A stretch of 64,000 bases of DNA from Thermoanaerobaculia bacterium (GCA_038230535.1 JBBRNB010000009.1:7729-71728), one strand, 5' to 3'. Shown: positions 4,281-9,904, counted from the stretch's first letter. Notes: generated from the letters alone by a model not told the origin. Numbers and translations are program-made.

Positions 4281-4341
4281 AAAGAATTTACACTCTTCCC
4301 GGTGCATTCGCGCACGTGCAGTGCATACCATTGGCGTCCCA

Positions 4342-6597
4342 ATGCCTTTGCCATCAGAAACAGCACTGATTGAGGTGCCTGCGGTGCCCGATACAGGGCC
4401 GCAAGCCGTGCAGTCGCTCCCCACCCCGCCACCCTCCCCGCTTGCCCCGCCCCCACTGCCAGCGGTACCGCTGTTCGACCGCGAGCTCGGTGCGCTGTCG
4501 TTCAACGAGCGCGTGCTGGCGGAGGCGCAGAACCCCTCGGTGCCGCTGCTCGAACGGGCCAAGTTCCTGAGCATCTGCGCGCACAACCTCGACGAGTTCT
4601 TCATGATCCGGGTCGGTGAGATCCGCGACCTCATCGCCGCCAACGTTCCGGCCGATCCGTTCGGGAACGGTCTCAAACGTCTTCAGGCAGTGCGCAGCGG
4701 AGCGCGGTCGCTGCTCCACAAGATCTATCACTGCCTGGGCGAGGAGCTGATCCCGGCACTGCGCAAGGAAGGGATCCGCATCGAACGAGTGGCGGACCTC
4801 GGCAAGAAGGAGCGCAATTTCGTCGAAGAGTATTTCTGCCGCGACCTCGAGCCGATCCTGACACCGCTGGCCATCGATCCAGCCCACCCTTTCCCGTTCA
4901 TCGCCAATCTCTCGCTCAACCTCGCCCTGCAGCTCGAATCGGAACGCGGGGAGAGGCACGTGGCCATCGTCAAGATCCCCGAAAGCGTCCCCCGGCTCGT
5001 GCCGATGCCGGAGAAGACGCGCTTTGTGCTGCTCGAGGACGTCATCTCATCGCACGTTCATCGTTTCTTTCCGGGACTGAAGGTCCTCCGTGTGGCCGCA
5101 TTCAGGGTGATCCGCAACTCCGATCTCGACATCAAAGAGGAGGAGATGCAGGACCTGCTCAAGAGCATCGAGAGCGAACTGCGGCGCCGCGAGCGGCGGG
5201 AGGTCGTGTGGCTGGAGATCGAACAGGGAGCCGGCGATCCGCTGCTGGCGTTGCTCGCCGGCGCCACCGACTCATCGCCGGATGACATCTTCTTTGCCCC
5301 AGGCCCGCTGAAGCTCGGCGATCTCCAGCAGCTCTACACACAGATCCAGAACCCGGAGCTGAAAGAAGCGCCCTTCAACCCGCGCATGCCGGCCCGGCTT
5401 GCCACCACGGACGACATCTTCTCGATCATTCGCCGAGGCGACCTGCTACTGCACCGGCCGTACGACTCGTTCACGGCTGTCATCGAGTTCGTTCAGTCGG
5501 CCGCCGAGGATGCCGGCGTCGTCGCCATCAAACAGACGCTCTATCGCACCGATCCAGGCTCGCCGATCATCGCCGCGCTCTCCGCGGCGGCGAGAGCCGG
5601 CAAGCAGGTAACCGCCGTGGTCGAGCTGCAGGCGCGCTTCGACGAACGGAAGAACATCACCTGGGCGCGAACGCTCGAAGAAGCGGGCGTGCAGGTGGTC
5701 TACGGAATCGTCGGGTACAAGACCCATTGCAAGGTCTGCCTCATCGTCCGGCGGGAAGGCGGCGAGCTGCGGCGGTACGTCCATCTCTCGACCGGGAACT
5801 ACAACGCTGTGACAGGGCGCCTCTACACCGATGTCGACCTCTTCACATGCGATCCAGCCTTCGGGTCCGACGCCGCCCAGCTCATGAATCTGCTCACCGG
5901 CTTCAGCGTGGCAGGAGTGCAGGAGCTGGTCGAGACCAAGGGGGCGACGCTGAAGTGGCGGGAGTTCGTGGTCTCGCCGATGGACTATCTGCGTTGGACG
6001 ATCCGGATGATCGACCGGGAGACGGAGAACGCCAAAGAAGGGAAACCGGCGGCGATCATCGCCAAGATGAACGCCCTGGTCGACCCAGGCGTGATCGAGG
6101 CGCTTTACCGGGCCAGCCGGGCCGGCGTGCAGGCCGACCTCCTCGTGCGCGGCATCTGCTGTCTCGTCCCTGGCCTACCCGGCGTCAGCCAGAACATCCG
6201 CGTGACGTCGATCATCGACCGGTTCCTCGAGCATTCGCGCATCTTCCAGTTCGCCAATGGCGGCGCGCCGCAGGTGTGGATCTCGAGCGGCGACTGGATG
6301 CCGCGCAATTACCTCCGGCGCATCGAGACCACGTTCCAGATCCGCGACGCCGCTGTGGCAAAGCGCCTCAGCGAACAGATCCTCCCGATCGCGTTGGGCG
6401 ACAACGTGAAGAGCTGGACACTGGGCTCCGATGGCACCTACCGCCGCCGCACACCGGGCGACCAGCGCCCCCTGCGCAGTCAGGAGACCTTCATCACCAT
6501 CGCCCGCTCCGATTCGGTGAGCGTCGGACCGTATGAGGAGAGCATCCACGATCCGGCGTCATTCCGAAGGAAAGCGAAGAAGAAAAAGAAGCATTAG
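4342..6597 (+). CDS. ppk1: Polyphosphate kinase 1
   Basis: RELGALSFNERVL, NLDEFFMIRV, HPFPF, IKQTLYRT, ELQARFDE, KTHCK (phospho-His), TGNYN, DRFLEHSR. Confidence 0.97.
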   Translation: MPLPSETALIEVPAVPDTGPQAVQSLPTPPPSPLAPPPLPAVPLFDRELGALSFNERVLAEAQNPSVPLLERAKFLSICAHNLDEFFMIRVGEIRDLIAANVPADPFGNGLKRLQAVRSGARSLLHKIYHCLGEELIPALRKEGIRIERVADLGKKERNFVEEYFCRDLEPILTPLAIDPAHPFPFIANLSLNLALQLESERGERHVAIVKIPESVPRLVPMPEKTRFVLLEDVISSHVHRFFPGLKVLRVAAFRVIRNSDLDIKEEEMQDLLKSIESELRRRERREVVWLEIEQGAGDPLLALLAGATDSSPDDIFFAPGPLKLGDLQQLYTQIQNPELKEAPFNPRMPARLATTDDIFSIIRRGDLLLHRPYDSFTAVIEFVQSAAEDAGVVAIKQTLYRTDPGSPIIAALSAAARAGKQVTAVVELQARFDERKNITWARTLEEAGVQVVYGIVGYKTHCKVCLIVRREGGELRRYVHLSTGNYNAVTGRLYTDVDLFTCDPAFGSDAAQLMNLLTGFSVAGVQELVETKGATLKWREFVVSPMDYLRWTIRMIDRETENAKEGKPAAIIAKMNALVDPGVIEALYRASRAGVQADLLVRGICCLVPGLPGVSQNIRVTSIIDRFLEHSRIFQFANGGAPQVWISSGDWMPRNYLRRIETTFQIRDAAVAKRLSEQILPIALGDNVKSWTLGSDGTYRRRTPGDQRPLRSQETFITIARSDSVSVGPYEESIHDPASFRRKAKKKKKH

Positions 6598-6651: not shown

Positions 6652-7146
6652 CTATCGTTGCCGCATAACGCGTGGGCGCAGCATCCACTCCAGCGTCGCG
6701 CTTCCGTCCGCGCGGAGCCGCAGGCCGTAGCAGCCGCCTTTTCTCAGCTCGATCGCTCCGTCGCTGCTCAAATTCGTGATGGCCAGCATCGCTGTCGAGA
6801 GGGACGGCTCGTGACCGACGCAGATGACTCGCCGCGCCTCGCTCGACATGATCAGCGTACGGATGGCATCGACGCCGGCGCCCGGCTTCAGCGCGCCGGC
6901 CGCTCGCATGATCGAGGGCTTTCGGTAGGCCTTGACCACCCATTCCGCGGTCTGCATGCAGCGGAGGAGCGGACTCGTGTAGACCACTTCCGCCTTCGGA
7001 AAGAACCGCGCCAGACCACGGCCGATCTGCTTCATGCGGCGCTCGCCGGTTGCGGTCAGGACACGGTCGTCATCATTCTCTCTCGCCCCATGCGGCTCGG
7101 CGATTCCATGACGCAGCAGGACGATGAACTTCTCACCCGTTTCCAT
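6652..7146 (-). CDS. sixA: Phosphohistidine phosphatase, SixA family
   Basis: LLRHGIAE...D..R.LT..G, SPLLRCMQTA and VGHEP motifs. Confidence 0.88.
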   Translation of the reverse strand: METGEKFIVLLRHGIAEPHGARENDDDRVLTATGERRMKQIGRGLARFFPKAEVVYTSPLLRCMQTAEWVVKAYRKPSIMRAAGALKPGAGVDAIRTLIMSSEARRVICVGHEPSLSTAMLAITNLSSDGAIELRKGGCYGLRLRADGSATLEWMLRPRVMRQR

Positions 7147-8338
7147 TTGGCGGTTCCCCCACGTACCTCGCCCGTGGCCGGATCATTTCATCCTTCGCAT
7201 ACTGTTCGATGGCGTGGCCGATCCAGCCGATGCTGCGGCCGAGCGCGAAGAGTGTCAGCGGCGCGCCGCGATCGAGCTTGAGCGTGCGGGCCAGAGCGGC
7301 GAGAGCAAAGTCGATGGCCGGCTTGTCACCGGTGAGCTCCTCCCCCACCTTGGCCACGTTGCGAGTAAAGATCACCTCAGGCGATTTGGCGAAGCGCTTC
7401 GCGAGCAGATCCATGAGGATCGCCGCGCGCGGATCGCCATTCGTGTACAGACGATGTCCGAAACCGTAGATCGGCTCGTGGCGGCGGAGGCGGTCAGACA
7501 GCGCCTTGCGAACATCGCGAGTCCGGCGAAGATCGGTGAGCATCGATTCCACCTTCTCGCTCAAACCGCCGTGCTTCGCCCCTTCGATCGCCGTGAGCCC
7601 CGCGATGACGACTGCATAAGGACTCGATCCCGCCGAGGCTACACAGCGGGCGGTGAAGGAAGAGACGTTCAGCTCGTGATCAGCGCAAAGGATCAGCGCC
7701 GCGCGCAACAGCTCGACAGCATGCGGCGTCTTCGGAATCCAACGCTTCTGAAGCGTCTCCTCGATGGAGTCTTCCAGGTCGGCTGACTCCGCGGCCACGC
7801 TGGTCAGAAGATTGACGATGCGCCAGCCGGTTTGGGCGACCGCACGGGGGCGAAGATCATAAGCAAGAGAATCGCGCGCTCCGACGAGCGGCAGCATCGA
7901 TTGCGCGCGGCTGACGAACGGCAGATCCTCGGCGCTCTTTCCACCGGCAACCACGTGCAGAGGCATGCCGGCGAAAAGGCTGACGTCGAAACTGCCCGTC
8001 CAGAGCAGCGCCGCCACCTCCTCCACGGTTCGCGTGCGCGCCAGCTCGCCGGCCTCGTAGCCGCGGAAGTACAGCCGATCGGAGTCGATGAGCGTGATCG
8101 AGGATTCGAGCACCGGCACACCCCAATGGAGGGCCCGTTCCGCGGTCTTCCCTGGGTCGCGGCGCTGCTCGCTCCTGTTCCGCAGCCGCTCGACATCCTC
8201 GGCCGCATAGCGGCGCTGATGGGAGTTGCCCGGTTTCGCCGTGGAGCGCACCAAGCCTCGGCTGACGTACGCGTAGAGCGTCGTACGGCTCACGCCCAGC
8301 CGCTTGGAGGCATCGTCCGAAGAGAGCCATGAGACCAT
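7133..8338 (-). CDS. Citrate synthase family protein with N-terminal excisionase/MerR-like HTH
   Basis: N-terminus WLSSDDASKRLGVSRTTLYAYVSRGLV (HTH_17-like); citrate synthase motifs LYFRG, ADHELNVSSF, KHGG, GFGHRLY, AIDF, GWIGHAIEQ, RPRARYVG. Confidence 0.9.
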   Translation of the reverse strand: MVSWLSSDDASKRLGVSRTTLYAYVSRGLVRSTAKPGNSHQRRYAAEDVERLRNRSEQRRDPGKTAERALHWGVPVLESSITLIDSDRLYFRGYEAGELARTRTVEEVAALLWTGSFDVSLFAGMPLHVVAGGKSAEDLPFVSRAQSMLPLVGARDSLAYDLRPRAVAQTGWRIVNLLTSVAAESADLEDSIEETLQKRWIPKTPHAVELLRAALILCADHELNVSSFTARCVASAGSSPYAVVIAGLTAIEGAKHGGLSEKVESMLTDLRRTRDVRKALSDRLRRHEPIYGFGHRLYTNGDPRAAILMDLLAKRFAKSPEVIFTRNVAKVGEELTGDKPAIDFALAALARTLKLDRGAPLTLFALGRSIGWIGHAIEQYAKDEMIRPRARYVGEPPNGNG

Positions 8339-8361
8339 GAGGCGGTTACGCTATCACCCTG

Positions 8362-8411
8362 ACATTGATTCTGCAATCAATGTTGACAACATTGATGACC
8401 GGCCCTAGCTT
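8362..8411 (+). promoter_or_regulatory. Triple ACATTGAT operator overlapping a sigma70 promoter (TTGACA-17-TAGCTT) of the leaderless citrate synthase gene
   Basis: ACATTGATT-N4-AATCAATGT (8362-8383) and ATCAATGTTG-A-CAACATTGAT (8376-8396); TTGACA 8383-8388, TAGCTT 8406-8411, ATG 8418. Confidence 0.8.
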
Positions 8412-8417
8412 GATCAC

Positions 8418-9605
8418 ATGAACGACACCATGATCCACAACGGTCTCGAAGGCATCATCGCCGCGGAAACCTCATTGAGCATGGTCGACGGAACGGCAGG
8501 CGAGCTGATCATCGCCGGGTTCCCTGTTGCCGAACTGGCCATGAACGCCACATTCGAGGAGACGGCGCATCTCCTCTGGTACGGCTCGCTGCCGGACGCG
8601 CAGGAGCTGGCAGCCTTCCGCTCCGATCTCGCGCAACGACGCGAGCTGCCGGCGGCCGCCTACGAGCTCCTCCGCGCAGCCGCGCGCGAGCAGGCCGGCG
8701 GCATGGACGCGCTGCGGATGGCGGCAGGGACCATCAGCCTTCGCGGTTCCGGCACAGACAAGAGTTTCCGTGCTGCCGATGACCACGCCGCCCGCAATCT
8801 GTTAGCCGCTTTTCCGACGATCGTAGCCGCCTACTGGCGGCTCAGCAACGATCGCTCGCCTATCGCGCCACGTCCCGACCTCGGCCATGCCGCGAACTTT
8901 CTCTACATGCTCTCCGGAGAGACGCCGTTGGACGAGCGCGTGCGGGGTCTGGAGACCTATCTCAACACCGTCGTCGACCACGGGCTCAACGCTTCGACGT
9001 TCACCGCACGCGTCATCGCTTCGACGAATTCCGATCTCATCTCCGCCGTAGCAGGCGCGATCGGCGCGCTCAAAGGGCCGCTGCATGGAGGGGCGCCGGG
9101 ACCGGCGCTCGACATGGTGTTCGAGATCGGCAACGCCGGGCGCGCCGAGGAGGTGCTGCGGGGAAAAATCGAGTCGGGCGAGAAGCTGATGGGCTTCGGC
9201 CACCGCGTTTACAAAGTGCGCGATCCACGCGCAGACGTCCTCGCCGCGGCGGCGGAACGAATGTTCACGCGCGGCGGCGACATGGCGCTTTATCAGCTCG
9301 CCCGCGCGGTCGAGACGGTTGCGCTTCGCCTGCTGGAGGAATACAAGCCGGGCCGCAACCTGCAGACGAATGTCGAGTTCTACACGGCCCTCCTGCTGCA
9401 CGGCCTCGATCTCGAGGTTCCGCTCTTCACCCCCACCTTCGCCGTCAGCCGGGTCGCAGGCTGGATCGCCCACTGCTTCGAGCAGCGCCGCGCCAACCGC
9501 ATCATCCGGCCGCAGTCGGTCTATCGCGGCTCCCGTGACCGGCGCTGGGTGCCAGCCTCGGCCCGTTCAGCGCAACCCGCGGCGGGAACGCTCGTATCAT
9601 TGTGA
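8418..9605 (+). CDS. Citrate/2-methylcitrate synthase family protein (Bacillus subtilis CitA/CS-I-like)
   Basis: GLEGII.AET, DHGLNASTF, KGPLHGGA, GFGHRVYK..DPR, TNVEFY (Glu at the usual catalytic Asp), GWIAH..EQ. Confidence 0.92.
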   Translation: MNDTMIHNGLEGIIAAETSLSMVDGTAGELIIAGFPVAELAMNATFEETAHLLWYGSLPDAQELAAFRSDLAQRRELPAAAYELLRAAAREQAGGMDALRMAAGTISLRGSGTDKSFRAADDHAARNLLAAFPTIVAAYWRLSNDRSPIAPRPDLGHAANFLYMLSGETPLDERVRGLETYLNTVVDHGLNASTFTARVIASTNSDLISAVAGAIGALKGPLHGGAPGPALDMVFEIGNAGRAEEVLRGKIESGEKLMGFGHRVYKVRDPRADVLAAAAERMFTRGGDMALYQLARAVETVALRLLEEYKPGRNLQTNVEFYTALLLHGLDLEVPLFTPTFAVSRVAGWIAHCFEQRRANRIIRPQSVYRGSRDRRWVPASARSAQPAAGTLVSL

Positions 9606-9619
9606 CGGAGGCCTTGACC

Positions 9620-9904
9620 ATGTTTGCGTTGATCGTGCTCCTCGGGATGGCGATGTTCGCAGCCGTTGCGTTCACAGTGGTGGCATTGATCGCGGTCGTG
9701 GCGAAGGTGGTGATCCTGCCATTTCGCCTGCTGATGCTGCCGGTCAAGCTTCTGGCCCTGCCGTTCATCGCCATTGCACTGGTGATCAAGTTCGCGTTCC
9801 TGATCGCCTTCGGTTCGATCGTGGTTGCTCTGCTGATCCCGCTGGCGATCCTGGCGCTCCTTGTCGCCGCGCCGATCGCGCTCATTGTTTCGGCCGCGAG
9901 CTGA
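9620..9904 (+). CDS. Small hydrophobic membrane protein
   Basis: Almost entirely hydrophobic; GGAGG SD upstream; follows the citrate synthase stop directly. Confidence 0.7.
   Translation: MFALIVLLGMAMFAAVAFTVVALIAVVAKVVILPFRLLMLPVKLLALPFIAIALVIKFAFLIAFGSIVVALLIPLAILALLVAAPIALIVSAAS

Follow-up and report, generated by a model that had tools for sequence, protein, structure and literature searches.

What is the function of a citrate synthase that carries a DNA-binding head? The question was raised by two divergent genes in a 64,000-nt stretch of DNA from a Thermoanaerobaculia bacterium (GCA_038230535.1 JBBRNB010000009.1:7729-71728). The whole stretch is called the window, and all coordinates are counted from its first letter. 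The first gene (7133..8338, minus strand) encodes P0001, a fusion of a helix-turn-helix (HTH) head and a citrate synthase body with 401 amino acids. The second gene, CS2 (8418..9605, plus strand), encodes P0002, a CitA-class citrate synthase with 395 amino acids. The intergenic gap between them is 79 bp. Both ORF calls agreed with the original prediction, which had regarded P0001 as a one-component regulator repressing its partner. The best explanation as a whole is that P0001 regulates genes by site-specific DNA binding and is no housekeeping enzyme, and that it works as proposed below. We consider this explanation likely.

The neighbouring genes were inspected on both sides. A hydrophobic ORF of 100 amino acids, orf100 (9602..9904, plus strand), overlaps the stop codon of CS2. 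A Pfam search with orf100 gave no match. It was found 3' of CS2 in genus relatives by tblastn in the loci of 13 relatives, and it is the probable second gene of a controlled CS2 operon. At the other side, a His_Phos_1 gene overlaps the 3' end of the fusion gene in the window, and its tblastn match was confined to the window's own locus. The ORFs 3' of the fusion gene lie on mixed strands in the wider loci, where an ORF was picked in 78 of 80. No conserved operon partner was seen 3' of the fusion gene by tblastn in the relatives or in these 78 wider loci.

CS2, the proposed controlled gene, encodes a protein close to a solved enzyme. The Citrate_synt domain of Pfam spans residues 9–366 of P0002 (E 2.7e-118). 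P0002 passes the NCBIfam model PRK12350 (341 bits; cutoff 332), and its best PDB match is citrate synthase 1 of B. subtilis (2c6x, E 1.3e-95). The NVEF motif, by which the protein had been assigned to the CitA class, aligns to NVEF of 2c6x, with Glu in place of the catalytic Asp. All 70 CS2 orthologues adjoining fusion genes have Glu at this position. The genome carries two further full-scoring citrate synthase genes. Therefore, CS2 is an accessory enzyme.

The predicted architecture of P0001, a MerR-like HTH placed N-terminal to a citrate synthase fold, was confirmed by Pfam. HTH_17 covers residues 4–53 (8180..8329, minus strand; E 5.7e-8, 33.3 bits; cutoff 27), and MerR_1 also matches this MerR-superfamily winged HTH (E 2.4e-7, 31.2 bits; cutoff 21.6). 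The best PDB sequence match of the HTH is SoxR (2zhg), a weak one (E 0.025). The AlphaFold model of P0001 has a mean pLDDT of 93.5. The linker between the head and the synthase (residues 61–78; 8105..8158, minus strand) is modelled with low confidence: block-mean pLDDT is 56–68 at residues 61–80 and falls below 50 at residues 68–73. The synthase body (residues 73–398; 7145..8122, minus strand) matches Citrate_synt (PF00285, E 3.2e-65). It has the full two-domain, all-helical citrate synthase fold, and citrate synthases rank top in the Foldseek search against the PDB (TM 0.65–0.71 over 350–370 columns). The His/His/Asp positions had been claimed to be kept in the fusion; in alignments with solved synthases, KHGG, GFGH and IDF indeed match HGG, GFGH and VD. 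The best-scoring NCBIfam models for P0001 stay below their cutoffs, with 168 bits versus 421 for TIGR01800 and 146 versus 332 for PRK12350. P0001 is 27.6% identical to CS2.

Homodimer modelling of P0001 gave a median ipSAE of 0.77 versus 0.00 for the best of three controls; as solved citrate synthase dimers exist, this pass may mirror likeness only. Among proteins whose solved structure is a pair of one chain, 20 of 30 reach the ipSAE mark; among those solved as single chains, 1 of 23 does. The homodimer runs share at least 91% of contacts, and the partner pLDDT is at least 86. The modelled interface is formed by the synthase body and the C-terminal arm, with the HTH excluded. The body is proposed as both dimerisation unit and sensor.

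P0001 fits a family whose chains of about 400 amino acids consist of an HTH_17/MerR head and a full synthase body. Among 65 representatives of this family with at most 54% identity, HTH_17 was found in 61 and Citrate_synt in 65. Leu14, Tyr24, Arg27, Gly28 and Tyr44 of the HTH are invariant in this set.

If P0001 binds DNA, where would it bind? As the original prediction had described, the gap holds three copies of ACATTGAT in alternating orientation: box 1 (8362..8369, plus strand), box 2 (8376..8383, minus strand) and box 3 (8389..8396, plus strand). The repeat search found exactly these three copies on both strands of the 64-kb window, against 1.14 expected. Therefore, three copies within 35 bp would be far beyond chance. 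Boxes 1 and 2 form an inverted pair with arms at 8362–8370 and 8375–8383 (9 nt, 100% complementary, 4 nt between). Boxes 2 and 3 form another with arms at 8376–8385 and 8387–8396 (10 nt, 100% complementary, 1 nt between). Of the two overlapping perfect palindromes that had been claimed, 8376–8396 is exact and 8362–8383 is perfect in its arms only.

Two promoters are predicted back to back in the gap. The elements of the claimed CS2 promoter (8383..8411, plus strand) are confirmed by direct reading: a perfect TTGACA at 8383–8388, a 17-bp spacer and TAGCTT at 8406–8411, which ends 6 nt 5' of the ATG at 8418. The CS2 transcript is thus predicted to start at or beside this ATG, giving a leaderless mRNA. 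The putative promoter of the fusion gene (8348..8376, minus strand) was found by consensus reading. It has TTGCAG at 8371–8376, a 17-bp spacer and TAGCGT at 8348–8353, whose end is 9 nt 5' of the ATG. This layout (TAnnnT, 17 nt, TTGCnn) recurs in the genus, at 13 of 17 loci. A consensus promoter and terminator scan of 8250–8500 returned 0 promoters and 0 terminators. The scan misses the CS2 promoter because TAGCTT agrees with TATAAT at only three of six positions, and the promoter readings are consequently based on three features: the perfect -35, the spacing of 17 bp and the conservation in the family.

The boxes are interlocked with these promoters. Box 1 is inside the spacer of the fusion gene's own predicted promoter, box 2 is between the two -35 hexamers, and box 3 is inside the spacer of the predicted CS2 promoter. 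Boxes 2 and 3 together make a 21-bp palindrome centred on the -35. The site in the window reads ATTGAT-TCTGCA-ATCAAT-G-TTGACA (8364–8388).

A lack of motif conservation in orthologous divergent regions had been named in the original prediction as an outcome that would speak against it. The pattern TTGAY-N5-8-RTCAA, which admits spacers of 5 to 8 nt, was sought within 250 nt 5' of the fusion start. The result was strongly positive, and the named outcome was not seen: the site was found at 96 of the 104 loci with usable upstream sequence, a number that includes the locus of the window itself and may count some loci twice between the two collections. Elsewhere in the same loci, the pattern occurred 6 times in 470,063 bases. 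After deduplication, 95 unique sites were left, with a spacer of 6 in 51 and of 7 in 44. The family-wide site is TTGAT-N6/7-ATCAA-N-(A)TTGAC, in which ATCAA lies exactly 2 nt 5' of TTGAC. Box 1 corresponds to its first half-site and box 2 to its central, shared element. ATCAA-N-ATTGA is conserved at 98–100% in the unique sites, ATCAA itself at 100%, and TTGA of the CS2-side -35 at 98–100%. The TTGAT positions of box 3 are conserved within the genus and reach about 50% across the family. TANNNT was found 16–18 nt 3' of the -35 at 37 of 77 sites, whereas a shifted control gave 1 of 77, and the spacer of these 37 promoters is 17 bp in 30, 16 bp in 4 and 18 bp in 3. The distance from the fusion start codon to the first half-site has a median of 23 nt and a minimum of 3. 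Therefore, the fusion gene's own promoter must overlap the site. The recognition helix and the half-site are both nearly invariant. A linker landmark distance of 28 residues was obtained in both spacer classes, the landmarks being found in only 41 and 7 proteins.

The site tracks the fusion gene and not the partner gene. Loci with the fusion are spread over Acidobacteriota, Chloroflexota, Gemmatimonadota, Myxococcota, Binatia and the alpha-, beta- and gamma-proteobacteria, and site and fusion gene co-occur across at least six phyla. The site is kept where the divergent gene encodes a CoA-transferase III (16 loci), an HMGL-like protein (2), a PEP-mutase family protein (1) or a DUF2252 protein (1). 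It is absent 5' of a CS2-like gene without a fusion neighbour. Three genomes of the genus have neither the fusion nor a close CS2. Another genome seemed to lack the fusion, which is present there with its operator and broken at a contig end. The relaxed motif is missing at 8 of the 104 loci. Five of these have none, one has the motif under a misplaced start, one has a zero-spacer form and one is degenerate.

Within genomes, the site belongs to a single locus. In the 6.5-Mb genome, the perfect core site occurs only once, and the extended site is confined to the fusion locus in all five genomes searched. The sole other match to the extended site is one conserved sequence with one mismatch, seen in two of the five. 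Eight-base tandem repeats on one contig match the core pattern with one mismatch; they were rejected as a second operator and are a simple repeat array. The local boxes are a copy of the site conserved across several phyla, and the fusion is therefore most likely an unstudied metabolite-sensing switch made from a Krebs-cycle enzyme.

We propose the following working of P0001. Most likely, the protein acts locally as a dimeric regulator: it represses the promoter of its own gene and controls that of the partner, the signal being an oxaloacetate-like or citrate-like ligand. P0001 would dimerise via its synthase body as real synthases do, so that each dimer would carry a pair of flexibly linked winged HTH heads of the MerR type. 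These heads would bind the TTGAT/ATCAA half-sites of the divergent promoter region. That P0001 binds DNA is very probable. The bound protein would block the fusion gene's own promoter, since box 1 lies in the spacer of this promoter and box 2 between the two -35 hexamers; given DNA binding, such autorepression is quite probable. In this genus, the promoter of CS2 and orf100 would most likely be blocked too. An oxaloacetate- or citrate-type di- or tricarboxylate would occupy the conserved pocket, and the open-to-closed domain movement typical of the fold would alter the placement of the heads on DNA.

The direction of control over CS2 is a separate matter. The claim of a one-component regulator stands in so far as P0001 and the boxes have the appearance of a regulator and its operator. 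The part on partner repression is less secure, and we give repression of CS2 rather than its activation a little better than an even chance. Counted from the predicted CS2 start, the core palindrome (8365–8380) extends from about -53 to -38, with its centre at about -45.5, and abuts the -35 without overlap. Because of this position, a dimer could instead recruit or reposition RNA polymerase at the CS2 promoter, either ligand-bound or ligand-free, while its own gene is repressed. Such an arrangement is typical of LysR-type and class II activators. The fixed register of the family, with ATCAA 2 nt before TTGAC, suits a contact between protein and polymerase, and the weak -10 of CS2 resembles those of activator-dependent promoters. 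However, the perfect TTGACA and the optimal spacer are typical of promoters that need no activator. The presence of box 3 in the CS2 spacer in the genus and the palindrome of boxes 2 and 3 on the -35 also look occlusive. Activation is a tentative alternative, which we hold to be rather unlikely. Repression of both promoters is preferred for the genus; box 3 is found in only about half of the family, so that the repressor-like layout is not family-wide, and this weighs against the best explanation.

For the understanding of the ligand and of possible catalysis, the pocket was compared across the 65 representatives. His221, Asn224, His256, His295, Asp302, Arg304, Arg368, Arg387 and Arg389 are kept in 59–65 of them. 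The His, Asn and Arg residues among these are presumably the oxaloacetate- or citrate-binding positions. On the other hand, in a set of 68 real synthases 63 columns reach a conservation of at least 90%, and the family differs at 26 of these. In the Arg263 column, 50% of the family have Pro and just 27% have Arg, Met258 is replaced, with Pro in 76%, and Arg313 and Leu315, in the loop just before the catalytic Asp, are deleted in 98–100%. Position 299 after HRVY, which is basic in synthases (HRVYK motif), is Pro in 54 of 65. With the pig enzyme as reference, the lost basic residues are taken to be CoA contacts. Citrate, oxaloacetate or an acyl-CoA had been suggested as the ligand. The acyl-CoA is the least likely of the three, since the family has replaced or deleted basic residues that real synthases conserve. 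That the effector is oxaloacetate-like or citrate-like is about an even bet.

The same residues bear on whether P0001 might still be catalytically active, as a condensing enzyme or lyase of the citrate synthase family, and use its HTH only to adjust its own expression and that of its partner to turnover, in the manner of PutA or BirA. The fold is complete in both domains, every carboxylate-binding Arg is kept, and so are the catalytic positions (His256 in 59 of 65, His295 in 62, Asp343 in 56 with Glu in 4 more). A full triad is more than a pure ligand sensor needs, and it therefore fits a protein that still catalyses something. The partners in other lineages, CoA-transferase III and HMGL-like proteins, are acyl-CoA enzymes. 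However, the altered synthase columns described above, the deleted loop and the Pro after HRVY all speak against turnover. CitB (CCNA_03757) of Caulobacter crescentus complements E. coli gltA and CitC (CCNA_03758) does not, according to the available part of PMC7083601; CitC, likened here only as an adjacent accessory paralogue, counts against catalysis as well. An active enzyme of this kind is unlikely.

A two-way toggle was also considered. One dimer would sit either on boxes 1 and 2, with its own promoter off, or on boxes 2 and 3, with CS2 off; it could not hold both pairs together because box 2 is common to them. Domain closure on oxaloacetate, perhaps after a partial reaction dependent on the triad, would select the pair, and reciprocal expression would read the oxaloacetate/citrate state. 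We regard this as speculative and quite improbable. It is highly improbable that the boxes serve another regulator, such as a global factor of FNR/CRP type, or are mere promoter elements while the HTH has its targets elsewhere: the half-sites equal those of the FNR consensus TTGAT-N4-ATCAA and the third element coincides with the -35 hexamer, but the spacing is 6 or 7 in all 95 unique sites found with the N5-8 pattern, the site accompanies the fusion across phyla and beside four kinds of partner gene, it is missing at the CS2-like gene without a fusion neighbour, and its one locus per genome in five genomes argues against the known global regulator, with its many sites, that the prediction had named as a refuting outcome.

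If the regulator reading of P0001 is true, transcription factors would stand behind thousands of entries named 'citrate synthase' or 'citrate synthase family protein', including those of cultured Paraburkholderia, Bradyrhizobium, Achromobacter, Devosia and Ktedonobacter. Pathway reconstructions that count such proteins as TCA-cycle enzymes would be corrected. The citrate synthase fold would join the few enzyme folds recruited as sensors of one-component regulators. The ligand would reveal which signal controls the minor citrate synthases of the CitA class (Glu type), which are poorly understood, and would be relevant to the associated CoA-transferase and HMGL-type genes too. The operator is nearly invariant and the promoter context is clear. 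Therefore, the hypothesis is directly testable in tractable soil bacteria.

Adjacent accessory citrate synthase paralogues are found in other bacteria. Compared by description only, CitB/CitC of Caulobacter and SCO5831/SCO5832 (citA3/citA4) of S. coelicolor are such pairs. In the available part of PMC12323332, the divergent 'citrate synthase' genes sco5831 and sco5832 share a common intergenic region, and MtrA binds between them by EMSA. MtrA is a different regulator and is counted against the regulator reading of P0001, the pair being likened by gene description only. The available parts of PMC7083601 and PMC12323332 contain no mention of an HTH or a regulatory role, and helix-turn-helix occurs 0 times in that of PMC7083601. 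The absence of a characterised member, as claimed by the original prediction, agrees with the literature; no publication describing the HTH-citrate synthase fusion family as a regulator was found.

P0001 resembles MerR, SoxR and BmrR in its N-terminal winged HTH, for which Pfam gives both MerR_1 and MerR, and in its presumed dimer binding at an inverted repeat. However, it is without the C-terminal coiled-coil or MerR-type effector domain. In the model, helix 46–60 is followed by the low-confidence linker and the synthase fold, with no long antiparallel coiled-coil. The operator of the MerR family lies in a 19–20-bp spacer, whereas the spacer here is 17 bp, and thus the DNA-untwisting mechanism of MerR is inapplicable. 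In B. subtilis, CitR is a LysR-type repressor divergent from citA. The two loci are alike in a controlled gene of the same subfamily (2c6x, NVEF) and a dedicated divergent regulator. CitR has no synthase fold, whereas P0001 is a synthase paralogue with a MerR-type head.

PutA, BirA and NadR are trigger enzymes with their own DNA-binding domain and are proven enzymes. P0001 is like them in combining an enzyme and a putative repressor in one chain, and the operator is in a divergent promoter region as in putA-putP. Their folds are different, and catalysis by P0001 is doubtful in view of the apparent loss of its CoA-site residues. A likeness in design is offered by MocR, GabR and PdxR, in which a winged HTH is joined to a fold-type-I aminotransferase body that retains its cofactor or substrate pocket and which are often divergent from their target and autoregulated. 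Their head is of GntR type and their body an aminotransferase, in contrast to the MerR-type head and citrate synthase of P0001. There is no sequence or fold relation between them, so the likeness is an analogy of design and not membership. The common design is a DNA-binding head, a flexible linker and a complete dimeric enzyme fold whose pocket would serve as the sensor.

The fusion protein (P0001, 401 aa) is encoded by an ORF at 7133-8338 on the minus strand, and its partner, the citrate synthase CS2 (P0002, 395 aa), by an ORF at 8418-9605 on the plus strand of the window, whose G+C is about 62.5%. Pfam gave P0001 the domain order HTH_17 (residues 4-53, with MerR_1 overlapping) and then Citrate_synt, and P0002 is Citrate_synt from end to end. 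P0002 passed the cutoff of the NCBIfam subfamily PRK12350 'citrate synthase'; none of the curated NCBIfam synthase cutoffs was passed by P0001. In the alignment with solved synthases, the catalytic His, His and Asp correspond to KHGG, GFGH and IDF in P0001. NVEF of P0002 is aligned to NVEF of its best solved relative, B. subtilis citrate synthase 1 (PDB 2c6x). The residues named in the original prediction were thus correct for both proteins, and its observation as a whole (genes, domains, boxes and motifs) was confirmed. ACATTGAT occurs three times within the 79-bp gap, its orientation alternating from box 1 (8362-8369, plus) through box 2 (8376-8383, minus) to box 3 (8389-8396, plus), and this octamer has no other copies in the 64-kb window. 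Boxes 1 and 2 form an inverted repeat with 9-nt arms (8362-8370 and 8375-8383), whereas boxes 2 and 3 make up a perfect palindrome of 21 bp (8376-8396). On the other side of the fusion gene, a short histidine-phosphatase-family gene of 164 aa (6652-7146, minus strand) overlaps its 3' end by 14 nt and is convergent to polyphosphate kinase 1 (4321-6597, plus strand); tblastn gave no match to the phosphatase gene in any other fetched locus.

P0001 is a member of a large family of identical architecture. A search of a library clustered at 50% identity gave 1273 proteins at E ≤1e-30, and most of the best 150 of them are aligned from about residue 3-14 to about residue 397. Precomputed Pfam domains are HTH_17 plus Citrate_synt in 116 of the 120 closest clusters (all at ≥66% identity) and Citrate_synt alone in the other four, three of which are short (323-384 aa). 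Sixty-five library matches, 37-53% identical to P0001, were aligned as family representatives; HTH_17 was found in 61 and Citrate_synt in all 65. The HTH is strongly conserved, with L14, Y24, R27, G28 and Y44 invariant and T20, Y22, V25, S26, R31, S32, R40 and D48 conserved at ≥90%. The AlphaFold model of P0001 is confident (mean pLDDT 93.5) and places a winged HTH at residues 4-60 and, after a linker of low confidence (61-78), a complete synthase fold. In the PDB, the folds most like it are those of citrate and methylcitrate synthases, with TM values of 0.65-0.71. The homodimer model passed its controls (median ipSAE 0.77 versus 0.00 for the best of three controls) with a contact agreement of at least 91% and a partner pLDDT of at least 86 among the runs. 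Of 30 proteins solved as one-chain pairs, 20 reached the ipSAE mark, compared with one of 23 solved as single chains; since solved synthase dimers exist, the pass shows likeness rather than proof. The chains of the model meet through the synthase body together with the C-terminal arm, and the HTH stays outside the interface.

Positions that in synthases are catalytic or bind carboxylates are little changed among the 65 representatives: H221 in 62, N224 in 60, R231 in 65, H256 in 59, H295 in 62, D302 and R304 in 65 each, D343 in 56 (Glu in four more), R368 in 63, R387 in 64 and R389 in 63. The family was compared with 68 real synthases: P0002, 57 enzymes encoded beside a fusion gene and 10 of the housekeeping type at 30-40% identity. 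At the 63 columns conserved at ≥90% in these synthases, the fusion family keeps 37 and differs at 26. R263 of HRVY is Pro in 50% and Arg in 27%, the position after HRVY is Pro in 54 of the 65, and M258 is replaced (Pro in 76%). Deletions remove R141 in 90% and, on the loop that directly precedes the catalytic Asp, R313 and L315 in 98-100%. We take these altered places to be those where basic residues hold the phosphates of CoA in the pig-heart enzyme. On the basis of these presumed contacts and the column comparison, the pocket looks shaped for oxaloacetate, citrate or a similar acid, with the CoA site altered or lost. The original prediction had listed citrate, oxaloacetate or an acyl-CoA as the sensed molecule; we infer a ligand of the oxaloacetate, citrate or similar-acid type. 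A protein working purely as a sensor leaves the full retention of the catalytic triad unexplained, and the reading of the fusion as a trigger enzyme therefore stays alive beside it.

The reading of the fusion as a one-component regulator was examined by motif conservation in orthologous upstream regions, the check that the original prediction had itself proposed. Twenty-five loci came from relatives of the window's genome, where the fusion is found in 26 of 61 genomes, including 16 of 18 within the genus. A further 80 came from named genomes of Acidobacteriota, Chloroflexota, Gemmatimonadota, Myxococcota, Binatia and alpha-, beta- and gamma-proteobacteria, with cultured genera including Paraburkholderia, Bradyrhizobium, Achromobacter, Bordetella, Pandoraea, Devosia, Rhizobium and Ktedonobacter. 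TTGAY-N5-8-RTCAA lies within 250 nt of the fusion start in 96 of the 104 loci having at least 60 nt upstream (a total that counts the locus of the window and any duplicates shared by the two sets; L024 and L044, cut by contig ends, dropped), against six matches in the 470,063 bases that make up the rest of these loci. The conservation is near-universal. Among the eight misses, the site of L026 is visible but lies beneath a misplaced start codon, L029 has a zero-spacer ATTGATCAAT, and L112 has a degenerate half-site; the site is absent within 250 nt of the fusion start in L047, L070, L086, L102 and L108. After duplicate removal, 95 unique sites remained, in which ATCAA-N-ATTGA is conserved at 98-100%. 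The TTGAY-RTCAA spacer is 6 in 51 of them (Acidobacteriota, Chloroflexota, Gemmatimonadota, Myxococcota and gammaproteobacterial MAGs) and 7 in 44 (most alpha- and beta-proteobacteria). About half of the family lacks box 3. Short tandem repeat arrays lie between the fusion start codon and the conserved site in L025 (GTTGTCC repeats), L046, L048 (a 17-mer three times) and L071 (GATAAGTA repeats), so that the site lies as far as 180 nt from the start codon.

The site goes with the fusion gene rather than with the synthase partner, judging from the gene neighbourhoods. In the 80 wider loci, a CitA-class synthase is directly divergent in 50 and further along the divergent operon in two, and it was not found within the 2-kb flank in 28. 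Twenty-three of these 28 were scanned against Pfam (L044, L063, L081, L086 and L097 were outside the scan), and the divergent genes were CoA-transferase family III (16), HMGL-like (2), cation efflux (2), PEP-mutase/isocitrate-lyase family (1), DUF2252 (1) and PALP+ACT (1). The site is retained opposite the CoA-transferase, HMGL-like, PEP-mutase/isocitrate-lyase and DUF2252 genes, and the facing gene is cation-efflux or threonine-dehydratase-like in the siteless L070, L102 and L108. Among the relatives' loci, the divergent synthase is present in 21 of 25 and absent in L006, L028 and L029, while L024 is cut by a contig end. In one genus genome that seemed to be fusion-less, a contig end truncates the fusion gene and leaves its operator intact. 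A fusion-less family relative has no such site upstream of its CS2-like gene (56% identity), and three other relatives have neither the fusion nor the CS2 gene. The CoA-transferase family III genes, of 450-520 aa, face the fusion in Burkholderiales and one Terriglobales MAG (L064-L068, L073-L085, L089, L094, L096, L101 and L112); their Pfam match begins only at about residue 200-270, after a long N-terminal part without family.

The predicted CS2 promoter (8383-8411, plus strand) has TTGACA at 8383-8388, a 17-bp spacer and TAGCTT at 8406-8411, 6 nt before the ATG. It was not called by a consensus promoter scan because TAGCTT matches TATAAT at only three of six positions. Across the family, TTGAC sits 2 nt after ATCAA. 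Of 77 unique full sites, 37 have TANNNT 16-18 nt beyond the TTGAC, 30 of them at exactly 17 nt, against one of 77 in a control shifted by 6 nt; the window's own site, reading GTTGAC instead of ATTGAC, is outside the 77. This enrichment makes it very probable that the conserved TTGAC serves the partner gene as its -35. In the genus, the CS2-side -10 ends 6-8 nt before the ATG and no Shine-Dalgarno was found upstream of that ATG, which suggests a leaderless CS2 mRNA. On the opposite strand, 13 of 17 genus loci have TAnnnT, a 17-nt spacer and TTGCnn 6-9 nt before the fusion ATG; in the window this predicted promoter (8348-8376, minus strand) reads TAGCGT at 8348-8353 and TTGCAG at 8371-8376. The predicted layout is two back-to-back promoters with box 2 between both -35 hexamers; box 1 falls within the spacer on the regulator side and box 3 within the spacer on the CS2 side. 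Transcription is predicted to start near 8418 (plus) and 8341 (minus), leaderless in both cases. Across the family, the first half-site begins a median of 23 nt and a minimum of 3 nt from the fusion start codon, so that the fusion's own promoter must overlap the site; by this geometry, the protein would repress its own promoter, and autorepression would be a straightforward consequence. At CS2 the geometry is more ambiguous. The core palindrome is centred near -45.5 of the CS2 promoter, abutting the -35, a position compatible with activation of CS2. The perfect palindrome of boxes 2 and 3, centred on the CS2 -35, looks occlusive. Repression of the partner gene by the fusion, as originally proposed, would be the slightly likelier of the two. 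As a whole, the comparative evidence supports well that the fusion is a one-component regulator and that the boxes are its operator.

The 6.5-Mb genome has a single perfect core, ATTGAT-N6-ATCAAT, and the extended site was found at the fusion locus only in five of five genomes, apart from one one-mismatch sequence in two of them. Both copies of this sequence, TTGATCATCGSATCGAACTTGA, are in genomes of the genus and outside the fusion locus (G003:C1:42752-42773 and G015:C2:332333-332354); it is probably a conserved coding stretch. The single-locus occurrence and a spacing of 6-7, not the 4 of FNR-type boxes, argue against a known global regulator behind the boxes, which the original prediction had named as a refuting explanation. 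A one-mismatch core match in the window's genome (C1:106005-106046; L031 1490-1560) was rejected as a simple tandem repeat, not an operator. The array has about nine head-to-tail 8-mers (TGATCAAT, TGATCAGT and GGATCAGT) and is intergenic between two divergent ORFs.

By its alignment, P0002 is of the B. subtilis CitA class. Glu occupies the catalytic Asp position in all 70 P0002 orthologues beside fusion genes (identity ≥40%, HSP spanning the catalytic site), so that this residue marks the subfamily and is no sign of a defect. Two more synthase genes, both scoring higher than CS2, are present in the genome, and CS2 is therefore an accessory enzyme. A very hydrophobic ORF of 100 aa (9602-9904, plus strand) overlaps the CS2 stop codon, has no Pfam match and is kept downstream of CS2 across the genus. 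The ORF probably codes for a small membrane protein and is probably transcribed together with CS2. In one genus relative (L006, G014:C244), the CitA-class synthase is missing and the operator and the small hydrophobic ORF are retained; the regulator may now face this ORF alone.

A full-text literature search of a limited collection found no paper on an HTH-citrate-synthase fusion as a regulator or defining its site. In Caulobacter, citB and citC are adjacent synthase paralogues, and E. coli gltA was complemented by citB, not by citC; the passages on CitB and CitC mention no HTH (PMC7083601). MtrA was found by EMSA to bind between the divergent sco5831 and sco5832, both described as putative citrate synthases (PMC12323332). 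SCO5831 is labelled a 'citrate synthase-like protein' in another paper (PMC9739823), and a Collimonas 'citrate synthase family protein' appears only as a table row in a third (PMC12542777). Caulobacter CitC and S. coelicolor SCO5831 may belong to the fusion family. By its HTH head, the fusion belongs to the MerR superfamily, but the defining coiled-coil dimer and the operator with a 19-20-bp spacer are absent. Although not a member of the MocR/GabR-type or trigger-enzyme regulator families, the fusion is alike to them in design.
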